4,193 nt of DNA from a virus (taxonomy: Duplodnaviria > Heunggongvirae > Uroviricota > Caudoviricetes): positions 1 to 4,193 of the IMG/VR virus record IMGVR_UViG_2675903417_000005; one strand, written 5' to 3'. The position numbers and the translations under genes are program-made. This document shows positions 1-4,193 of the stretch, in pieces. The notes below the pieces were generated by a model. That model was not told the origin of the DNA. It made no database searches and saw only the letters and a list, made by a program, of their open reading frames with translations. Positions within the stretch are counted from its first letter, which is position 1. The number at the start of each line of letters is the position of its first letter.

Positions 1-150
1 GGTCTGACGGCGCTTAGTGCTGAATTCACTATCGGCGAAGGTGAGTTGATGGCTCATGATGTCCCTCTGGGATGCGCTCCGGATGAATATGATGATCTCA
101 TATCAGGAACTTGTTCGCACCTTCCCTTACACACAGCGCAATGTTGTTAG
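1..150 (+). CDS. Possible 3' end of an upstream ORF (49 sense codons open to the window edge, stop TAG 148-150); product unknown
   Basis: Frame 1 is the only + frame open from position 1, and runs to TAG at 148-150. It is in the same orientation as the downstream coi/c1 pair. Chance openness of 49 codons is roughly 10%, so support is weak; no start codon or RBS is visible. Confidence 0.25.
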   Translation, partial: GLTALSAEFTIGEGELMAHDVPLGCAPDEYDDLISGTCSHLPLHTAQCC

Positions 151-229
151 ATTACCCCAGCATGGATCATGGGTGAAACAGTAGGTCAGAGCTTCAGGCT
201 CTGTGTTGTCAATACAGTGAGGCATAATT

Positions 230-439
230 ATGGCTTTCATTCAACCAACCATCGACGACGTTAGACATTGCTCTAACGCTTTATCTGTAGACCCTGCCGA
301 AACCGACGCTGCCCGCGCCATTGCTGAACACTACTCAAAGATATCCAATCAGGAGTACCGCATCACCCAAGACGACCTGGATGACCTCACTGACACAATC
401 GAATATCTCATGGCAACTAACCAGTTAGACTCACAATAA
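230..439 (+). CDS. coi: Coi-like C1-repressor inactivator (small acidic antirepressor), 69 aa
   Basis: ATG at 230 preceded by SD-like GTGAGG (217-222) with a 7-nt spacer; stop TAA 437-439. The protein is small and acidic (many D/E). Its length of 69 aa and position immediately upstream of, and co-oriented with, a 283-aa ORF match the P1 coi-c1 arrangement. Identity is by recall of family properties, not alignment. Confidence 0.75.
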   Translation: MAFIQPTIDDVRHCSNALSVDPAETDAARAIAEHYSKISNQEYRITQDDLDDLTDTIEYLMATNQLDSQ

Positions 440-482
440 ATGCACTAATAAATCTATTATTTTTGTTTGATCCCTCTATAAT
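439..482 (+). promoter_or_regulatory. C1-operator-like 17-mer (439-455, AATGCACTAATAAATCT) overlapping the -35 region of a putative sigma70 promoter (-10 TATAAT at 477-482) upstream of c1
   Basis: 439-455 matches the asymmetric P1 C1 operator consensus ATTGCTCTAATAAATTT at 14 of 17 positions, including a perfect CTAATAAAT core. A perfect TATAAT hexamer lies at 477-482, about 70 nt upstream of the c1 ATG; no good -35 is present, and the operator sits where the -35 would be. Confidence 0.5.
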
Positions 483-549
483 ATAGGTCAGTAATGACCG
501 GTTTTCTCAGCCGGGCGTTATTGACCATGTCAATTCTGGAGGAGGATCA

Positions 550-1401
550 ATGATAAATTATGTCTACGGCGAACAACTGTACCAGGAGTTCGTCAGCTTC
601 AGGGATCTCTTTCTAAAAAAAGCTGTTGCACGCGCCCAACACGTTGATACAGCCAGCGACGGTCGTCCTGTACGCCCGGTTGTCGTTCTACCGTTCAAAG
701 AAACTGACAGCATTCAGGCTGAAATTGATAAATGGACTTTAATGGCGCGGGAACTGGAACAGTACCCAGACCTCAATATCCCAAAGACTATTTTATATCC
801 AGTGCCTAACATCCTTCGCGGTGTTCGCAAGGTTACAACTTATCAGACAGAAGCTGTGAACAGCGTCAACATGACCGCTGGCCGCATTATTCATCTGATT
901 GATAAGGACATTCGCATCCAAAAAAGCGCGGGGATCAATGAGCACAGTGCGAAATACATAGAGAACCTGGAAGCAACAAAAGAGCTAATGAAGCAGTACC
1001 CAGAGGATGAAAAATTCCGTATGCGCGTACACGGCTTTAGCGAAACAATGCTGCGCGTCCACTACATTTCCAGTAGCCCTAACTACAATGATGGTAAATC
1101 AGTGAGTTACCATGTGCCACTGTGTGGCGTGTTTATCTGCGATGAAACTCTCCGTGATGGAATTATCATCAACGGTGAATTCGAAAAAGCAAAATTTAGC
1201 CTTTATGACTCCATAGAACCGATCATCTGCGACCGCTGGCCGCAAGCAAAAATATATCGCCTGGCAGATATTGAAAATGTAAAAAAACAAATTGCCATCA
1301 CTCGCGAAGAGAAAAAGGTCAAATCAGCCGCATCAGTTACGCGCAGCCGCAAAACTAAGAAGGGGCAGCCAGTAAACGACAACCCCGAAAGCGCGCAATA
1401 G
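550..1401 (+). CDS. c1: C1-like primary lysogeny repressor (P1-type), 283 aa
   Basis: 283-codon ORF with ATG at 550 preceded by a strong SD GGAGGAGG (538-545); stop TAG 1399-1401. The 283-aa length, its position downstream of a 69-aa coi-like ORF, the operator-like 17-mer just upstream, and convergence on pacB all fit P1 c1. No canonical nuclease or NTPase motifs were seen; the C-terminal tail is basic. Confidence 0.8.
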   Translation: MINYVYGEQLYQEFVSFRDLFLKKAVARAQHVDTASDGRPVRPVVVLPFKETDSIQAEIDKWTLMARELEQYPDLNIPKTILYPVPNILRGVRKVTTYQTEAVNSVNMTAGRIIHLIDKDIRIQKSAGINEHSAKYIENLEATKELMKQYPEDEKFRMRVHGFSETMLRVHYISSSPNYNDGKSVSYHVPLCGVFICDETLRDGIIINGEFEKAKFSLYDSIEPIICDRWPQAKIYRLADIENVKKQIAITREEKKVKSAASVTRSRKTKKGQPVNDNPESAQ

Positions 1402-1410
1402 TTTCCATCC

Positions 1411-1444
1411 GGCATGGTTAATGAGTTATTCATTAAGCCATGCC
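1411..1444. terminator. Stem-loop between the convergent c1 and pacB 3' ends (14-bp stem with one bulged G, 5-nt loop); candidate bidirectional terminator or RNA-stability element
   Basis: GGCATGGTTAATGA (1411-1424), loop GTTAT (1425-1429), TCATTAAGCCATGCC (1430-1444). The right arm overlaps the last codons of pacB. No flanking U-tract on either strand, so it is not a canonical intrinsic terminator. Confidence 0.4.
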
Positions 1445-2910
1445 AGAGCTTCATCAACCTGCGCTTCGTCTTCGACGCTAAGCACTTCATCTTGGGGAAC
1501 ATAGTTCGCCAACATAGCGAAACAATATGTATCCCAATGGTCCGGTGAGTGCAGGTTGAGTTTTTTCTTCATATCTTCCTTTGACATCACCTTCCATTGA
1601 CCTGCGGAATTTATCCCTACCGGTATCTTTGATGCTTCCTCTATAGTCGCAGCCCCCTTATCAAGCCTCATACGCCCTGATTTTACAGCTTCTGCCGCCT
1701 GAATATTCGCGAAAGCGCGCATATCGAAATAAAGGCTTTTATCTTCACGGCTGTGCATCTTTTTACCCCAGCGGATACGCTGGACGGTAATGCCATAGCG
1801 TTCGTACATTAGATCAGCCGTCGATTTCCCCAAGCCATCGCCATCAATAGCTATGGTTATGTTCGGGAACCGTTCTGGGTTACATTCTGCGAAAATCTTG
1901 GCGGCTAACTGCGTTTCTGTAACGTCTGTGTATTCCAGCATACGATAGTTGATTACACGGCGTTTATTTCGCTGGCCGGACACCATCATGATATTAATAA
2001 CGGACTTATCTCGTCCTGTGCCACCAGCAACGTCAACACATGCAACCCAGCCCCATCCTTTGGCAATCTTGACCTTTCGCCGCGTCGCCCGCTCAACCTC
2101 ATCACGACCAAGAAGAAAGCCATCTTGAGATTTGGGAAATTCACCACGTACTTTGATCATGTACATGGGGTTATCACGACCGCCATACTCCGCAAGTTTT
2201 GCTCGTATAAATTTTGCATCTACAAGCGGAGATTCTTCACTATTCAGTATTATCGCAGTAAACAATCCATCAGGATTTCCCGGGCGAATAGCTAGTCTGT
2301 GGTGTGAATCGTAGAAATAGCCTGAAGGTCGCGTAGGCTGGGAAAGAAGCAGAATACGGTTATCCTTACCGGTCAGCGCACCTGTTATCACACTGAATGC
2401 TTTATCACTCACACCCGACGCTTCGTCGATGATATACAAGAGATGATCGGCGTGTTCACCAGCCAACGCCTCCTCATTTCCGGGGCGACAGGACTTTATC
2501 AATATTGTCCAAACACCCTTGCCAGTCACCTCAAAAAAAGACGTTTCTGTAAGAATGAAATACTTCGACAACCACGGGAATCTGCTAACAGCAGTAGCCC
2601 AATTGCTCTTTATGTATTTGAAAATACCATCAAGGACTTGCTGTCTTTTGTTAGCGACCAGAATGACGCGAGCGCCGGGGAAAAACATGATGAAGAGTAT
2701 TGCAATGATACTCGTCATATCCGATTTACCAGTACCATGGCCGGAGGTCACACTTGTCCAACTGCCGTCCTGCTGCGTGGACTCAATGATCTCATCCTGC
2801 TGCCAGGTTGGTGTCTTCCCAAACAACACATCAGCGGCCGCAATCCAGTCATAACGATATAGCGCCACCAGCTCGCGCCAACGTGGGTCCGTTACGCAAC
2901 TTCTGGCCAT
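1426..2910 (-). CDS. pacB: Terminase large subunit (ATPase + nuclease), PacB-like, 494 aa
   Basis: Walker A SGHGTGKS is encoded at nt 2722-2745 and Walker B LLYIIDEA at nt 2419-2442. The C-terminal half has RNase-H-like nuclease acidic motifs ([23 protein letters not shown]). The ATG at 2908-2910 overlaps the upstream stop (TAATG). The 494-aa length matches what I recall for P1 PacB. Confidence 0.88.
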
Positions 2911-3980
2911 TAATCATCATCCCCGTACAGTTTGCGGGTAACTTCTTCGTCTTCCTCCTCGTCTTCGTCCAGATCCTGTTCAAGCCATGCTTCGTTTGAT
3001 ATGCCTTCCGCATCGACATCACCATAACCACCTGTATCGACGATATCGGCAATTTCTTCTCTACGATGCTCAATCCACAATGCCGCATCAGCGCGGCGGC
3101 TGGCGGCCCGTTCTCGCGCGATTTTATCCAGATCTTCAAGTGATGGAGCGCCAGATGCTGTTTGGTTTTCCTCATCATCGGTATTGGTCTTAGGAGCACG
3201 CAGATCGGCTTTGATTTGCTCCAGCATCAGGGGCGGCACTTTTCCTCCATGCGCCTCGATGAATTCAGCCGCTTCCAGCACTGACCAGTTATTTTCACGC
3301 TTTCGTTCGTATGCCAGCTTAACAATGCCAGCTTGCCCCATAGATAAAGCGTGCTTTTCCGCCTCCCGGCTTTCTTTTCGATAGTTATTCCGGATGCTGT
3401 AAATGGTGTTGATCAGGCTGCTTATCTGCGCGGAACAGCTGTTTAGCATGCTCGCGATACGGTATTCAGGCGGAGTACCTTCATCATCGTCTTTTTGCTG
3501 ATCGCGCATTTCCTGCACCAGGCGAATACACGTATCCCTGGCGTTCTCCAGCATAAGGAGATGAGAAAGAGACTTTTCCAGAAGAGTGGTTTCCAGAACA
3601 TCGGCCCCGGACCGACGCAACATAGCGCGCGCGGCCTTCCGCGCTTCAACGTTATCTATCAGGTAATCGCCAGCTTCGAATTCAAAGCGTTCACCATCAT
3701 CATCCAGGGTGTCGCGTTCCAGGCGATCACGTAAGGTACGGTGGGCGCGGGTGATCACGTCATGATCATCAGAACGATCATTTATGCGCTTATTTTGGCG
3801 CTTAGCGTTCTCGACTGCGGCACTAACAACAGCATTAACTTTTTGTTTTTCAGCCATTTCAGCCACAACGTAATCACCTGCACGTTGATCATTAGCGTGA
3901 TCAATGATCATGCTTTTTAGTGGTTTCCTGACAGGCTTATTTGGCTTAGGGGTTTGAGGGCCAATGATGCAAAAAACCAC
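2910..3980 (-). CDS. pacA: Terminase small / pac-recognition subunit, PacA-like (start codon uncertain: GTG 3980, ATG 3911 or ATG 3857)
   Basis: Long ORF immediately upstream of, and translationally coupled to, the large terminase (stop TAA 2910-2912 overlapping the pacB ATG). The 5' coding region contains the 4+3 TGATC(A/G) hexamer cluster, consistent with the P1 pac site lying within pacA. The C-terminus is highly acidic ([11 protein letters not shown]). An in-frame TGA at 3996-3998 limits the N-terminus, and none of the three candidate starts has a strong SD. Confidence 0.72.
3724..3911. other. pac-like packaging initiation site: seven Dam-methylatable hexamers TGATC(A/G), four at 3724-3780 and three at 3886-3910, flanking a roughly 105-bp core
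   Basis: Hexamers on the pacA sense strand: TGATCG (3724-3729), TGATCA (3752-3757), TGATCA (3763-3768), TGATCG (3775-3780), then TGATCA at 3886-3891, 3898-3903 and 3905-3910. About 0.15 such hexamers are expected by chance in this span. The 4+3 arrangement and overall size match the described P1 pac site, whose cleavage depends on Dam methylation of these elements. Confidence 0.6.
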
Positions 3981-4088
3981 GCTAACAGCGTTAGTTCATT
4001 GTTTATATTGAAATTGATAGGTACTGCGTTTACAGCCACTTCAGTCGTCATGGTGGGGCTGAGGGACGGGTCCGCTTGGAAAAAGGAA

Positions 4089-4103
4089 ATTATCCTACTA
4101 TAA
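4089..4103 (-). promoter_or_regulatory. Candidate promoter for pacAB: -10-like GATAAT (minus strand, 4094..4089) abutting the 9-mer TTATAGTAG (minus strand, 4103..4095)
   Basis: On the minus strand, CCCTTATAGTAGGATAATTTCC gives a TANNNT-type -10 with no recognisable -35, which is what an activator-dependent (Lpa-type late) promoter would look like. The 9-mer recurs at 4179-4187. This is weak: 9-mer repeats are expected by chance in 4 kb, and I cannot recall the exact late-promoter consensus. Confidence 0.25.
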
Positions 4104-4119
4104 GGGCTTCCCCGAACAG

Positions 4120-4191
4120 TCAACGCCGGTTTTTAATTTCTGTCTGTTCATCAATGAAAGGCAAGGGATAAGACTGCGCTACTATAAACGG
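4120..4191 (-). CDS. Possible 3' end of an upstream minus-strand ORF (23 sense codons open to the window edge, stop TGA at 4120-4122); product unknown
   Basis: One minus-strand frame stays open from the window edge to TGA at 4122..4120 (translation ...PFIVAQSYPLPFIDEQTEIKNRR*). In P1-like genomes a gene lies upstream of pacA on the same strand. A stretch this short is open by chance about a third of the time. Confidence 0.2.
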   Translation of the reverse strand, partial: PFIVAQSYPLPFIDEQTEIKNRR

Positions 4192-4193
4192 TC

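Follow-up and report, generated by a model that had tools for sequence, protein, structure and literature searches.

Stem-loops that lack a U-tract, such as REP-type stabilisers and those at Rho-dependent 3′ ends, shield mRNAs from 3′ exonucleases. At the sib/tI locus of lambda, a 3′ hairpin is situated downstream of a gene, and its effect is set by the transcript that carries it. Canonical intrinsic terminators, by the criteria used in this work, possess a GC-rich stem of ~5–14 pairs and a loop of 3–8 nt, followed by at least ~5 U within 8 nt. For bacteriophage P1, at least 45 transcription units have been reported (PMC10695390), and RNA-seq data from infection with P1vir exist (GSE173614; PMC8201110). 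In the P1 genome (OP279344; L194 and L195 in our locus numbering), a hairpin was found at all nine of the convergent gene junctions. Those at dbn/gp5 (AGAAAAGCCCGAACGCCGGGCTTTTCT) and U′/U are textbook terminators consisting of an A-tract, a hairpin, and a T-tract. The hairpin at the c1/pacB junction, the subject of this work, is likewise a single structure that overlaps convergent stops and forms a stem-loop on both strands, but it has neither the A-tract on one side nor the T-tract on the other, and it possesses a longer stem that is richer in AT toward the loop. Hairpins without such tracts also occur at hyp7/lxc (5138–5170 of P1), where 12 pairs overlap a stop codon in the absence of a T-tract, and at rlfB/pmgF, where a 13-pair hairpin is U-tract-less like the previous two. 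Elements of this kind are known and occur at every other convergent junction of P1; the c1/pacB hairpin is an ordinary one among them.

Existing annotation is silent on the structure, as no terminator or stem-loop is annotated at c1/pacB in GenBank records AF234172, AF503408, or M74046. This silence is uninformative, however, because AF234172 omits all of the P1 junction hairpins, even the canonical dbn/gp5 terminator. Full-text searches found neither a paper on a c1–pacB terminator nor Term-seq or 3′ RACE data for P1; the P1 genome paper (Lobocka et al. 2004) and the first publications of the c1 and pacAB sequences may mention dyad symmetry at this place.

The window analysed here, i.e., the whole stretch of DNA under study, is 4,193 nt in length and represents a plasmid prophage of the P1 type. 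Its positions 126–3947 match phage P1 at 98% identity and an E. coli IncY plasmid prophage at 100%. Gene calls were taken from the list of open reading frames together with the curated P1 record AF234172. On the plus strand are coi (230–439) and c1 (550–1401, with a TAG stop at 1399–1401), which encodes the P1 C1 repressor of lytic functions with a product 99% identical to P1 C1.100. On the minus strand are pacB (1426–2910), encoding the P1 packaging enzyme or terminase subunit B, and pacA, from 2910 onward. The TAA stop of pacB is the reverse complement of 1426–1428, leaving 24 nt (1402–1425) between it and the c1 stop. A sequence-only reading of the window had proposed these two gene identities and their convergent layout, which P1 identity and AF234172 bear out, together with a 24-bp separation of the stops and a stem reaching the last five codons of pacB, both of which agree with the sequence and its open reading frames.

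Both ends of the window are foreign to P1. The first 125 nt hold the terminal inverted repeat and, on the minus strand, the initial codons for a transposase of the IS5-like (ISKpn26-type) group, and are 100% identical to positions 387–511 of locus L005, where a transposase is annotated. This IS5-like end is inserted upstream of coi, in place of the imcA/imcB side of immC, and the junction it forms with the coi side is common to several P1-like plasmids. At the other end, P1 homology stops at 3948, and 3949–4193 is the end of a widespread foreign mobile element with 100% identical copies in many unrelated conjugative plasmids. The element begins with GGGGTTTGAGGGCCAATGATGCAAAAAACCACGCTAAC, which we take to resemble a Tn3-family inverted repeat. 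CTTA is found at both edges of the P1 segment (126–129 and 3945–3948), and the pacA/mobile-element junction was absent from the plasmids and complete E. coli genomes in the collections searched. The insertion costs pacA ~52 N-terminal codons as well as the late promoter LPpac, and the prophage is therefore probably packaging-defective. The sequence-only reading had placed pacB in a “late packaging operon”; in this window that operon has lost its head, the 5′ end of pacA and LPpac being replaced from 3949 onward. Transcription in the pacB sense is probably weak in this element, and on that strand the hairpin is probably inherited rather than currently needed.

A separate feature of the c1 transcript is a strong 41-nt hairpin in the c1 leader (486–526, plus strand; −24.5 kcal/mol), which is the most stable 46-nt window of the plus strand. 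It lies directly 3′ of the Pc1 −10 box (477–482) and 5′ of the c1 Shine–Dalgarno sequence, and could serve as a 5′ stabiliser or attenuator of c1. The terminator scan also marked an alternative small hairpin at 486–499, followed by GGTTTTCTCA.

The c1/pacB hairpin itself is formed by a left, intergenic arm (1411–1424; GGCATGGTTAATGA) and a right arm (1430–1444; TCATTAAGCCATGCC) that join in 14 Watson–Crick pairs and leave G1437 as a bulge. Between them, the loop GTTAT (1425–1429) contains the pacB stop. Direct reading of the letters confirmed this geometry just as the sequence-only reading had described it. A spacer (1402–1410) separates the stem from c1, so that the stem begins 9 nt past the c1 stop, and the right arm, read on the minus strand, is made up of the five final pacB codons (A W L N E). 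The stem extends beyond the length first given, as 1408–1409 pair with 1446–1447, and the intervening 1410/1445 is mismatched (C·A) on the plus strand but paired (U·G) on the minus strand. The extension partner thus spans 1445–1447, and the stem has 14–16 pairs on the plus strand and 17 on the minus strand. Within the outer stem, five of the seven pairs are G·C.

The folding-energy calculation suggested by the sequence-only reading was run, and gave −19.4 kcal/mol (z −5.2) for the plus-strand, c1-sense RNA and −23.4 kcal/mol (z −7.1) for the minus-strand, pacB-sense RNA, with none of 200 local shuffles folding as well. When all 46-nt windows on both strands were scanned, 6 of 30 whole-window shuffles attained −23.4 kcal/mol, and free energy alone was dropped as a test of significance in favor of an inverted-repeat test. 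That test ranks the hairpin first among the short-loop inverted repeats of the window: it has 14 pairs and a single defect, whereas the best repeat in 200 whole-window dinucleotide shuffles had 12 pairs. Among such repeats it ranks first in the entire 88-kb genome of P1 as well. What makes the hairpin significant is thus how nearly perfect the repeat is and where it lies, and not its free energy, which is unexceptional once corrected for the whole-window scan and in that respect counts against reading the repeat as a functional stem-loop. The hairpin is real and non-random, and is located exactly where c1 and pacB meet tail to tail.

Several properties of the hairpin would suit a genuine bidirectional intrinsic terminator, acting on both strands despite the lack of U-tracts and possibly with help from NusA or NusG. 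The stem is stable, as the canonical kind requires, with a strong, GC-rich base and a loop of 5 nt, and the structure sits between two stops. The 10 nt past the stem read AGAGCUUCAU on the plus strand and GGAUGGAAAC on the minus strand, however, and contain only 3 U and 1 U, respectively. The sequence-only reading had noted the missing U-tracts, and both tails as well as a consensus terminator scan of the window agree, as the scan did not report the c1/pacB site. The tail scores of the hairpin were 0.15–0.98. The combination of a 5′ A-tract and a 3′ U-tract that characterizes bidirectional intrinsic terminators is also absent, with flanks of CCAUCC and AGAGCU. The hairpin is not a canonical intrinsic terminator, because a U-tract is found on neither strand. 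It can also be reasoned that on the pacB strand, where the 5′ arm is coding and the loop contains the stop, ribosomes completing pacB would prevent the hairpin from closing. In its favor, canonical bidirectional terminators occur at this same place in two distant relatives and at other P1 junctions, but on balance we consider this explanation unlikely. A d’Aubenton-Carafa-type score was discarded since its positive controls, rrnB T1 and lambda tR2, came out negative, and plain U counts were used thereafter. Rfam covariance models run against both strands of the whole window produced no match at E-values up to 1.

The RNA downstream of the hairpin differs between the strands. Past the hairpin, c1-sense RNA has a C/G ratio of 1.4–1.6 over 80–300 nt, and the untranslated, C-rich, G-poor read-through RNA antisense to pacB (1448–1747, plus strand) could be a putative Rho loading region. 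Read-through RNA in the pacB sense is not C-rich (C/G 0.8–0.9). That transcript would encounter a second hairpin 40–80 nt downstream, in the 3′ end of c1 (1347–1386, minus strand), composed of GGGGTTGTCGTTTACTGGCTGCCCC (1386–1362) and a U-rich tail, UUCUUAGUUUUG. This second hairpin looks more terminator-like than the one at c1/pacB, but its function is speculative, and its conservation is uninformative because it lies in the coding sequence of c1.

Junctions of pacB and c1 were gathered from IMG/VR, GTDB genomes, metagenomes, and plasmids, and were found to fall into two architectures that are about equally common. In the first, architecture A, pacB and c1 abut as they do in P1; its 127 occurrences, in which some contigs are counted twice, collapse to 12 haplotypes. 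The outer part of the intergenic arm, GGCATGG (1411–1417), is unchanged in all 12 haplotypes. By comparison, 10 of the 28 positions making up the spacer, left arm, and loop are variable, and the spacer by itself has five variable sites and one indel. A hypergeometric estimate for finding zero variable sites in the 7-nt GGCATGG block is ~0.03. The inner intergenic arm (1418–1424) occurs as TTAATGA in the window and P1, as TCAATGA in the commonest form, and also as TCAAATT and TTAAAGA. The right arm has no variation in any of the 12 haplotypes and, as coding sequence, is kept even where the left arm is missing. Conservation of the hairpin is partial: free energies over the haplotypes range from −17.7 to −23.5 kcal/mol on the minus strand and from −14.2 to −19.8 kcal/mol on the plus strand, the weakest being haplotype v1 (−17.7 and −14.2, respectively), in which pairing in the inner stem half is broken.

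No stem pair showed a compensatory double change on either strand among the 12 haplotypes, and in a covariation analysis, control shuffles matched the observed value in 500 of 500 cases, albeit with low sequence diversity (96% mean identity) and one arm frozen by coding. The one-sided changes are transitions that leave G·U pairs on pacB-sense RNA and C·A mismatches on c1-sense RNA, such that standard pairs fill 96.6% of cells on the pacB-sense strand versus 87.3% on the c1-sense strand. This hints that pacB-sense RNA may be the constrained one, although only two sites are involved and the pattern would arise by chance about one time in four. Taken as a whole, the comparative evidence for the hairpin is modest. 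The absence of compensatory changes and the broken inner stem half of some haplotypes both weigh against a stem-loop maintained for its structure.

These same observations are compatible with the hairpin being a neutral by-product, in which the repeat arose when c1 and pacB were joined or through templated (quasi-palindrome) mutation, and has no role in RNA metabolism. Besides the lack of covariation, this explanation draws on a stem that is longer and more perfect than those of usual terminators, and on variants (1419 T/C and 1410 C/T) that alter complementarity in the non-coding arm only. In addition, 1406 (C/T) and 1419 (T/C), only 13 nt apart, occur in all four combinations among the haplotypes, a pattern that points to recombination within the stem or to mutation that recurs there and may be templated, and that fits a neutral origin. 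What such an origin leaves poorly explained is the invariant outer intergenic arm, whose immediate flanks are variable. We regard an origin of this kind as possible but doubtful, and would say the same of its corollary, that the repeat persists because these elements are of recent origin and protein coding holds one arm in place.

It is likewise conceivable that the 34-bp near-palindrome operates at the level of DNA, as a site for a dimeric protein or as a cruciform. The extra G1437 makes the halves unequal and breaks the symmetry of spacing, however, and the commonest haplotypes are asymmetric (1419 C), while v1 lacks the inner half of one arm altogether. Half-sites with two-fold symmetry and fixed spacing, as expected of a protein-binding palindrome, were not found across the 12 haplotypes. 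One arm, moreover, is plain coding sequence that is conserved even without its partner, and the sequence has no likeness to the C1 operator that occupies the corresponding place in the second architecture. A DNA-level function is accordingly the faintest of the prospects considered here.

In architecture B, which accounts for about half of P1-like elements, the pacB stop is directly followed by a C1 operator (ACAATTTATTAGAGCAA), and a ~1.7-kb ash/icd/ant module encoding a KilAC-antirepressor, co-directional with pacB, lies between pacB and c1. An operator–icd–ant insertion is known for RCS47 and pTZ20_1P (PMC6906374). The operator AAATTTATTAGAGCAA abuts the pacB stop in L002, L003, and L004 (~1480–1500) and at many IMG/VR loci; in L002, L029, and L074, the pacB frame runs through the normal stop site and on into the operator. 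At the pacB stop of architecture B, the right arm is present, the left arm is absent, and no structure is formed (−1.6 kcal/mol, z +2.3). Homology between the two architectures breaks exactly at 1400 and at 1427/1428. The left arm is thereby situated at a module junction, and pacB works without the hairpin in architecture B, two further points that agree with a neutral by-product. The same facts tell against the stem-loop reading, since the pacB stop has no hairpin in about half of P1-like elements, and against a terminator or stabiliser role in particular, since pacB does without one where another module follows.

The ant/c1 junction of architecture B has a hairpin of its own, an unrelated 8-bp GC structure (ATGCCCGG CATCAA CCGGGCAT) located 3 nt past the c1 stop and identical in 32 loci. 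Because architecture B swaps one hairpin for another in this way, the hairpin goes with the site of convergence on c1 and not with pacB. This RCS47/pTZ20_1P-type hairpin resembles that of c1/pacB in its equivalent position, its sharing with a convergent gene, and its CCGGCAT motif; it differs in its short GC-rich stem, its partner, ant, and its weakly U-rich tails, UCUUCC and AAUUUAUU. CCGGCAT occurs in the c1 3′ flank of both architectures (1409–1415 in the window, 1811–1817 in L005) at an offset of +8 to +14 past the c1 stop, is part of the local hairpin in each, and is accompanied by an otherwise different spacer. A candidate origin of the c1/pacB junction by deletion between TGAATA repeats of the ant-bearing form was rejected, as the predicted product mismatches the window. 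Hairpins at ant/c1 and at every convergent junction of P1 are hard to accept as a repeated accident, which argues against the neutral explanation.

Among ten distant PacB relatives (29–61% identity), a hairpin at the 3′ end of pacB is frequent but not universal. Two Enterobacter/Pantoea-type loci with a convergent c1 homologue (L092 and L093) have canonical bidirectional terminators made up of an A-tract, a hairpin, and a T-tract, and L096, L097, and L098 have strong hairpins soon past the stop. In the Serratia locus L091, a hairpin of unrelated sequence holds the stop in its loop and is significant (z −4.1), and L090 has a weaker version of it. No significant structure was found in L089, L094, or L095, a result that also counts against the stem-loop reading. 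Recurrence of hairpins at equivalent junctions is, in sum, what these comparisons show.

L091 and L090 bear on another explanation, that of a regulatory RNA whose activity depends on translation or on the extent of the transcript, in the manner of lambda sib or of a ribosome-gated terminator. Translated late pacAB transcripts would read into c1 antisense, and untranslated or c1-sense RNA would be stopped or processed. The location of the stop in the loop and of the 5′ arm in the last five codons would be in keeping with this scheme, as would the like layout, in unrelated sequence, of L091, the weaker L090, and hyp7/lxc of P1. Overlap of a stop codon with a terminator hairpin is commonplace in compact genomes, however, and a 17-pair bulged stem is short for an RNase III substrate. 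The likeness to lambda sib/tI is one of resemblance only, the c1/pacB stem being shorter. We judge a regulatory RNA of this kind to be most unlikely. A narrower version, in which the hairpin is a translation-gated, U-tract-less insulator held open by ribosomes at the pacB stop in the loop, strikes us as very unlikely.

The interpretation that we favor, with about as much doubt as conviction, is that the hairpin is a shared 3′-end stem-loop that stabilises or delimits the two convergent mRNAs. The sequence-only reading, which had suggested a terminator or 3′ stabiliser, is supported in part: such a role is plausible because hairpins are present at all convergent junctions of P1, at ant/c1, and in the terminators of some relatives. 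In the pacB sense, the late pacAB mRNA would end in a 17-pair hairpin whose 5′ arm is the last five codons and whose loop contains the stop; in the c1 sense, a hairpin of 14–16 pairs would form 9 nt past the c1 stop. Lacking a U-tract, the hairpin is unlikely to make E. coli RNA polymerase let go efficiently by itself, and polymerase would presumably be released further downstream, on the c1 strand most plausibly by Rho acting on untranslated, C-rich RNA antisense to pacB. Trimming by 3′-to-5′ exonucleases back to the hairpin could then fix and protect the 3′ end of the mRNA, and ends protected in this way might limit the antisense RNA that the two genes impose on one another. Effects on termination or on the stability of the RNA, like the involvement of Rho, are something we infer. 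The locus resembles protective stem-loops of the U-tract-less type in having a stable hairpin directly past a stop and C-rich untranslated RNA on the c1 strand. Unlike REP-type stabilisers, its sequence is not a REP element, and RNA downstream on the pacB strand has the low C/G ratio given above.

Should the translation-gated insulator prove true, late lytic transcription of pacAB would enter c1 and silence the repressor through antisense RNA or transcriptional collision, and in the lysogen, where pacB is untranslated, the hairpin would stop or cap c1 transcripts and thereby spare the packaging genes from antisense. Stop-in-loop hairpins in the Serratia relatives and at hyp7/lxc would then represent a design principle instead of compaction. 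If the hairpin delimits transcripts in the more conventional sense, it would be one further U-tract-less hairpin at a convergent junction, opening no new question, and P1-based phagemids or delivery vectors cut near c1 and pac could be designed to keep it or to drop it deliberately. Provided that it truly delimits the c1 and pacAB transcripts, the hairpin would refine the transcription map of P1, a contribution of modest significance.
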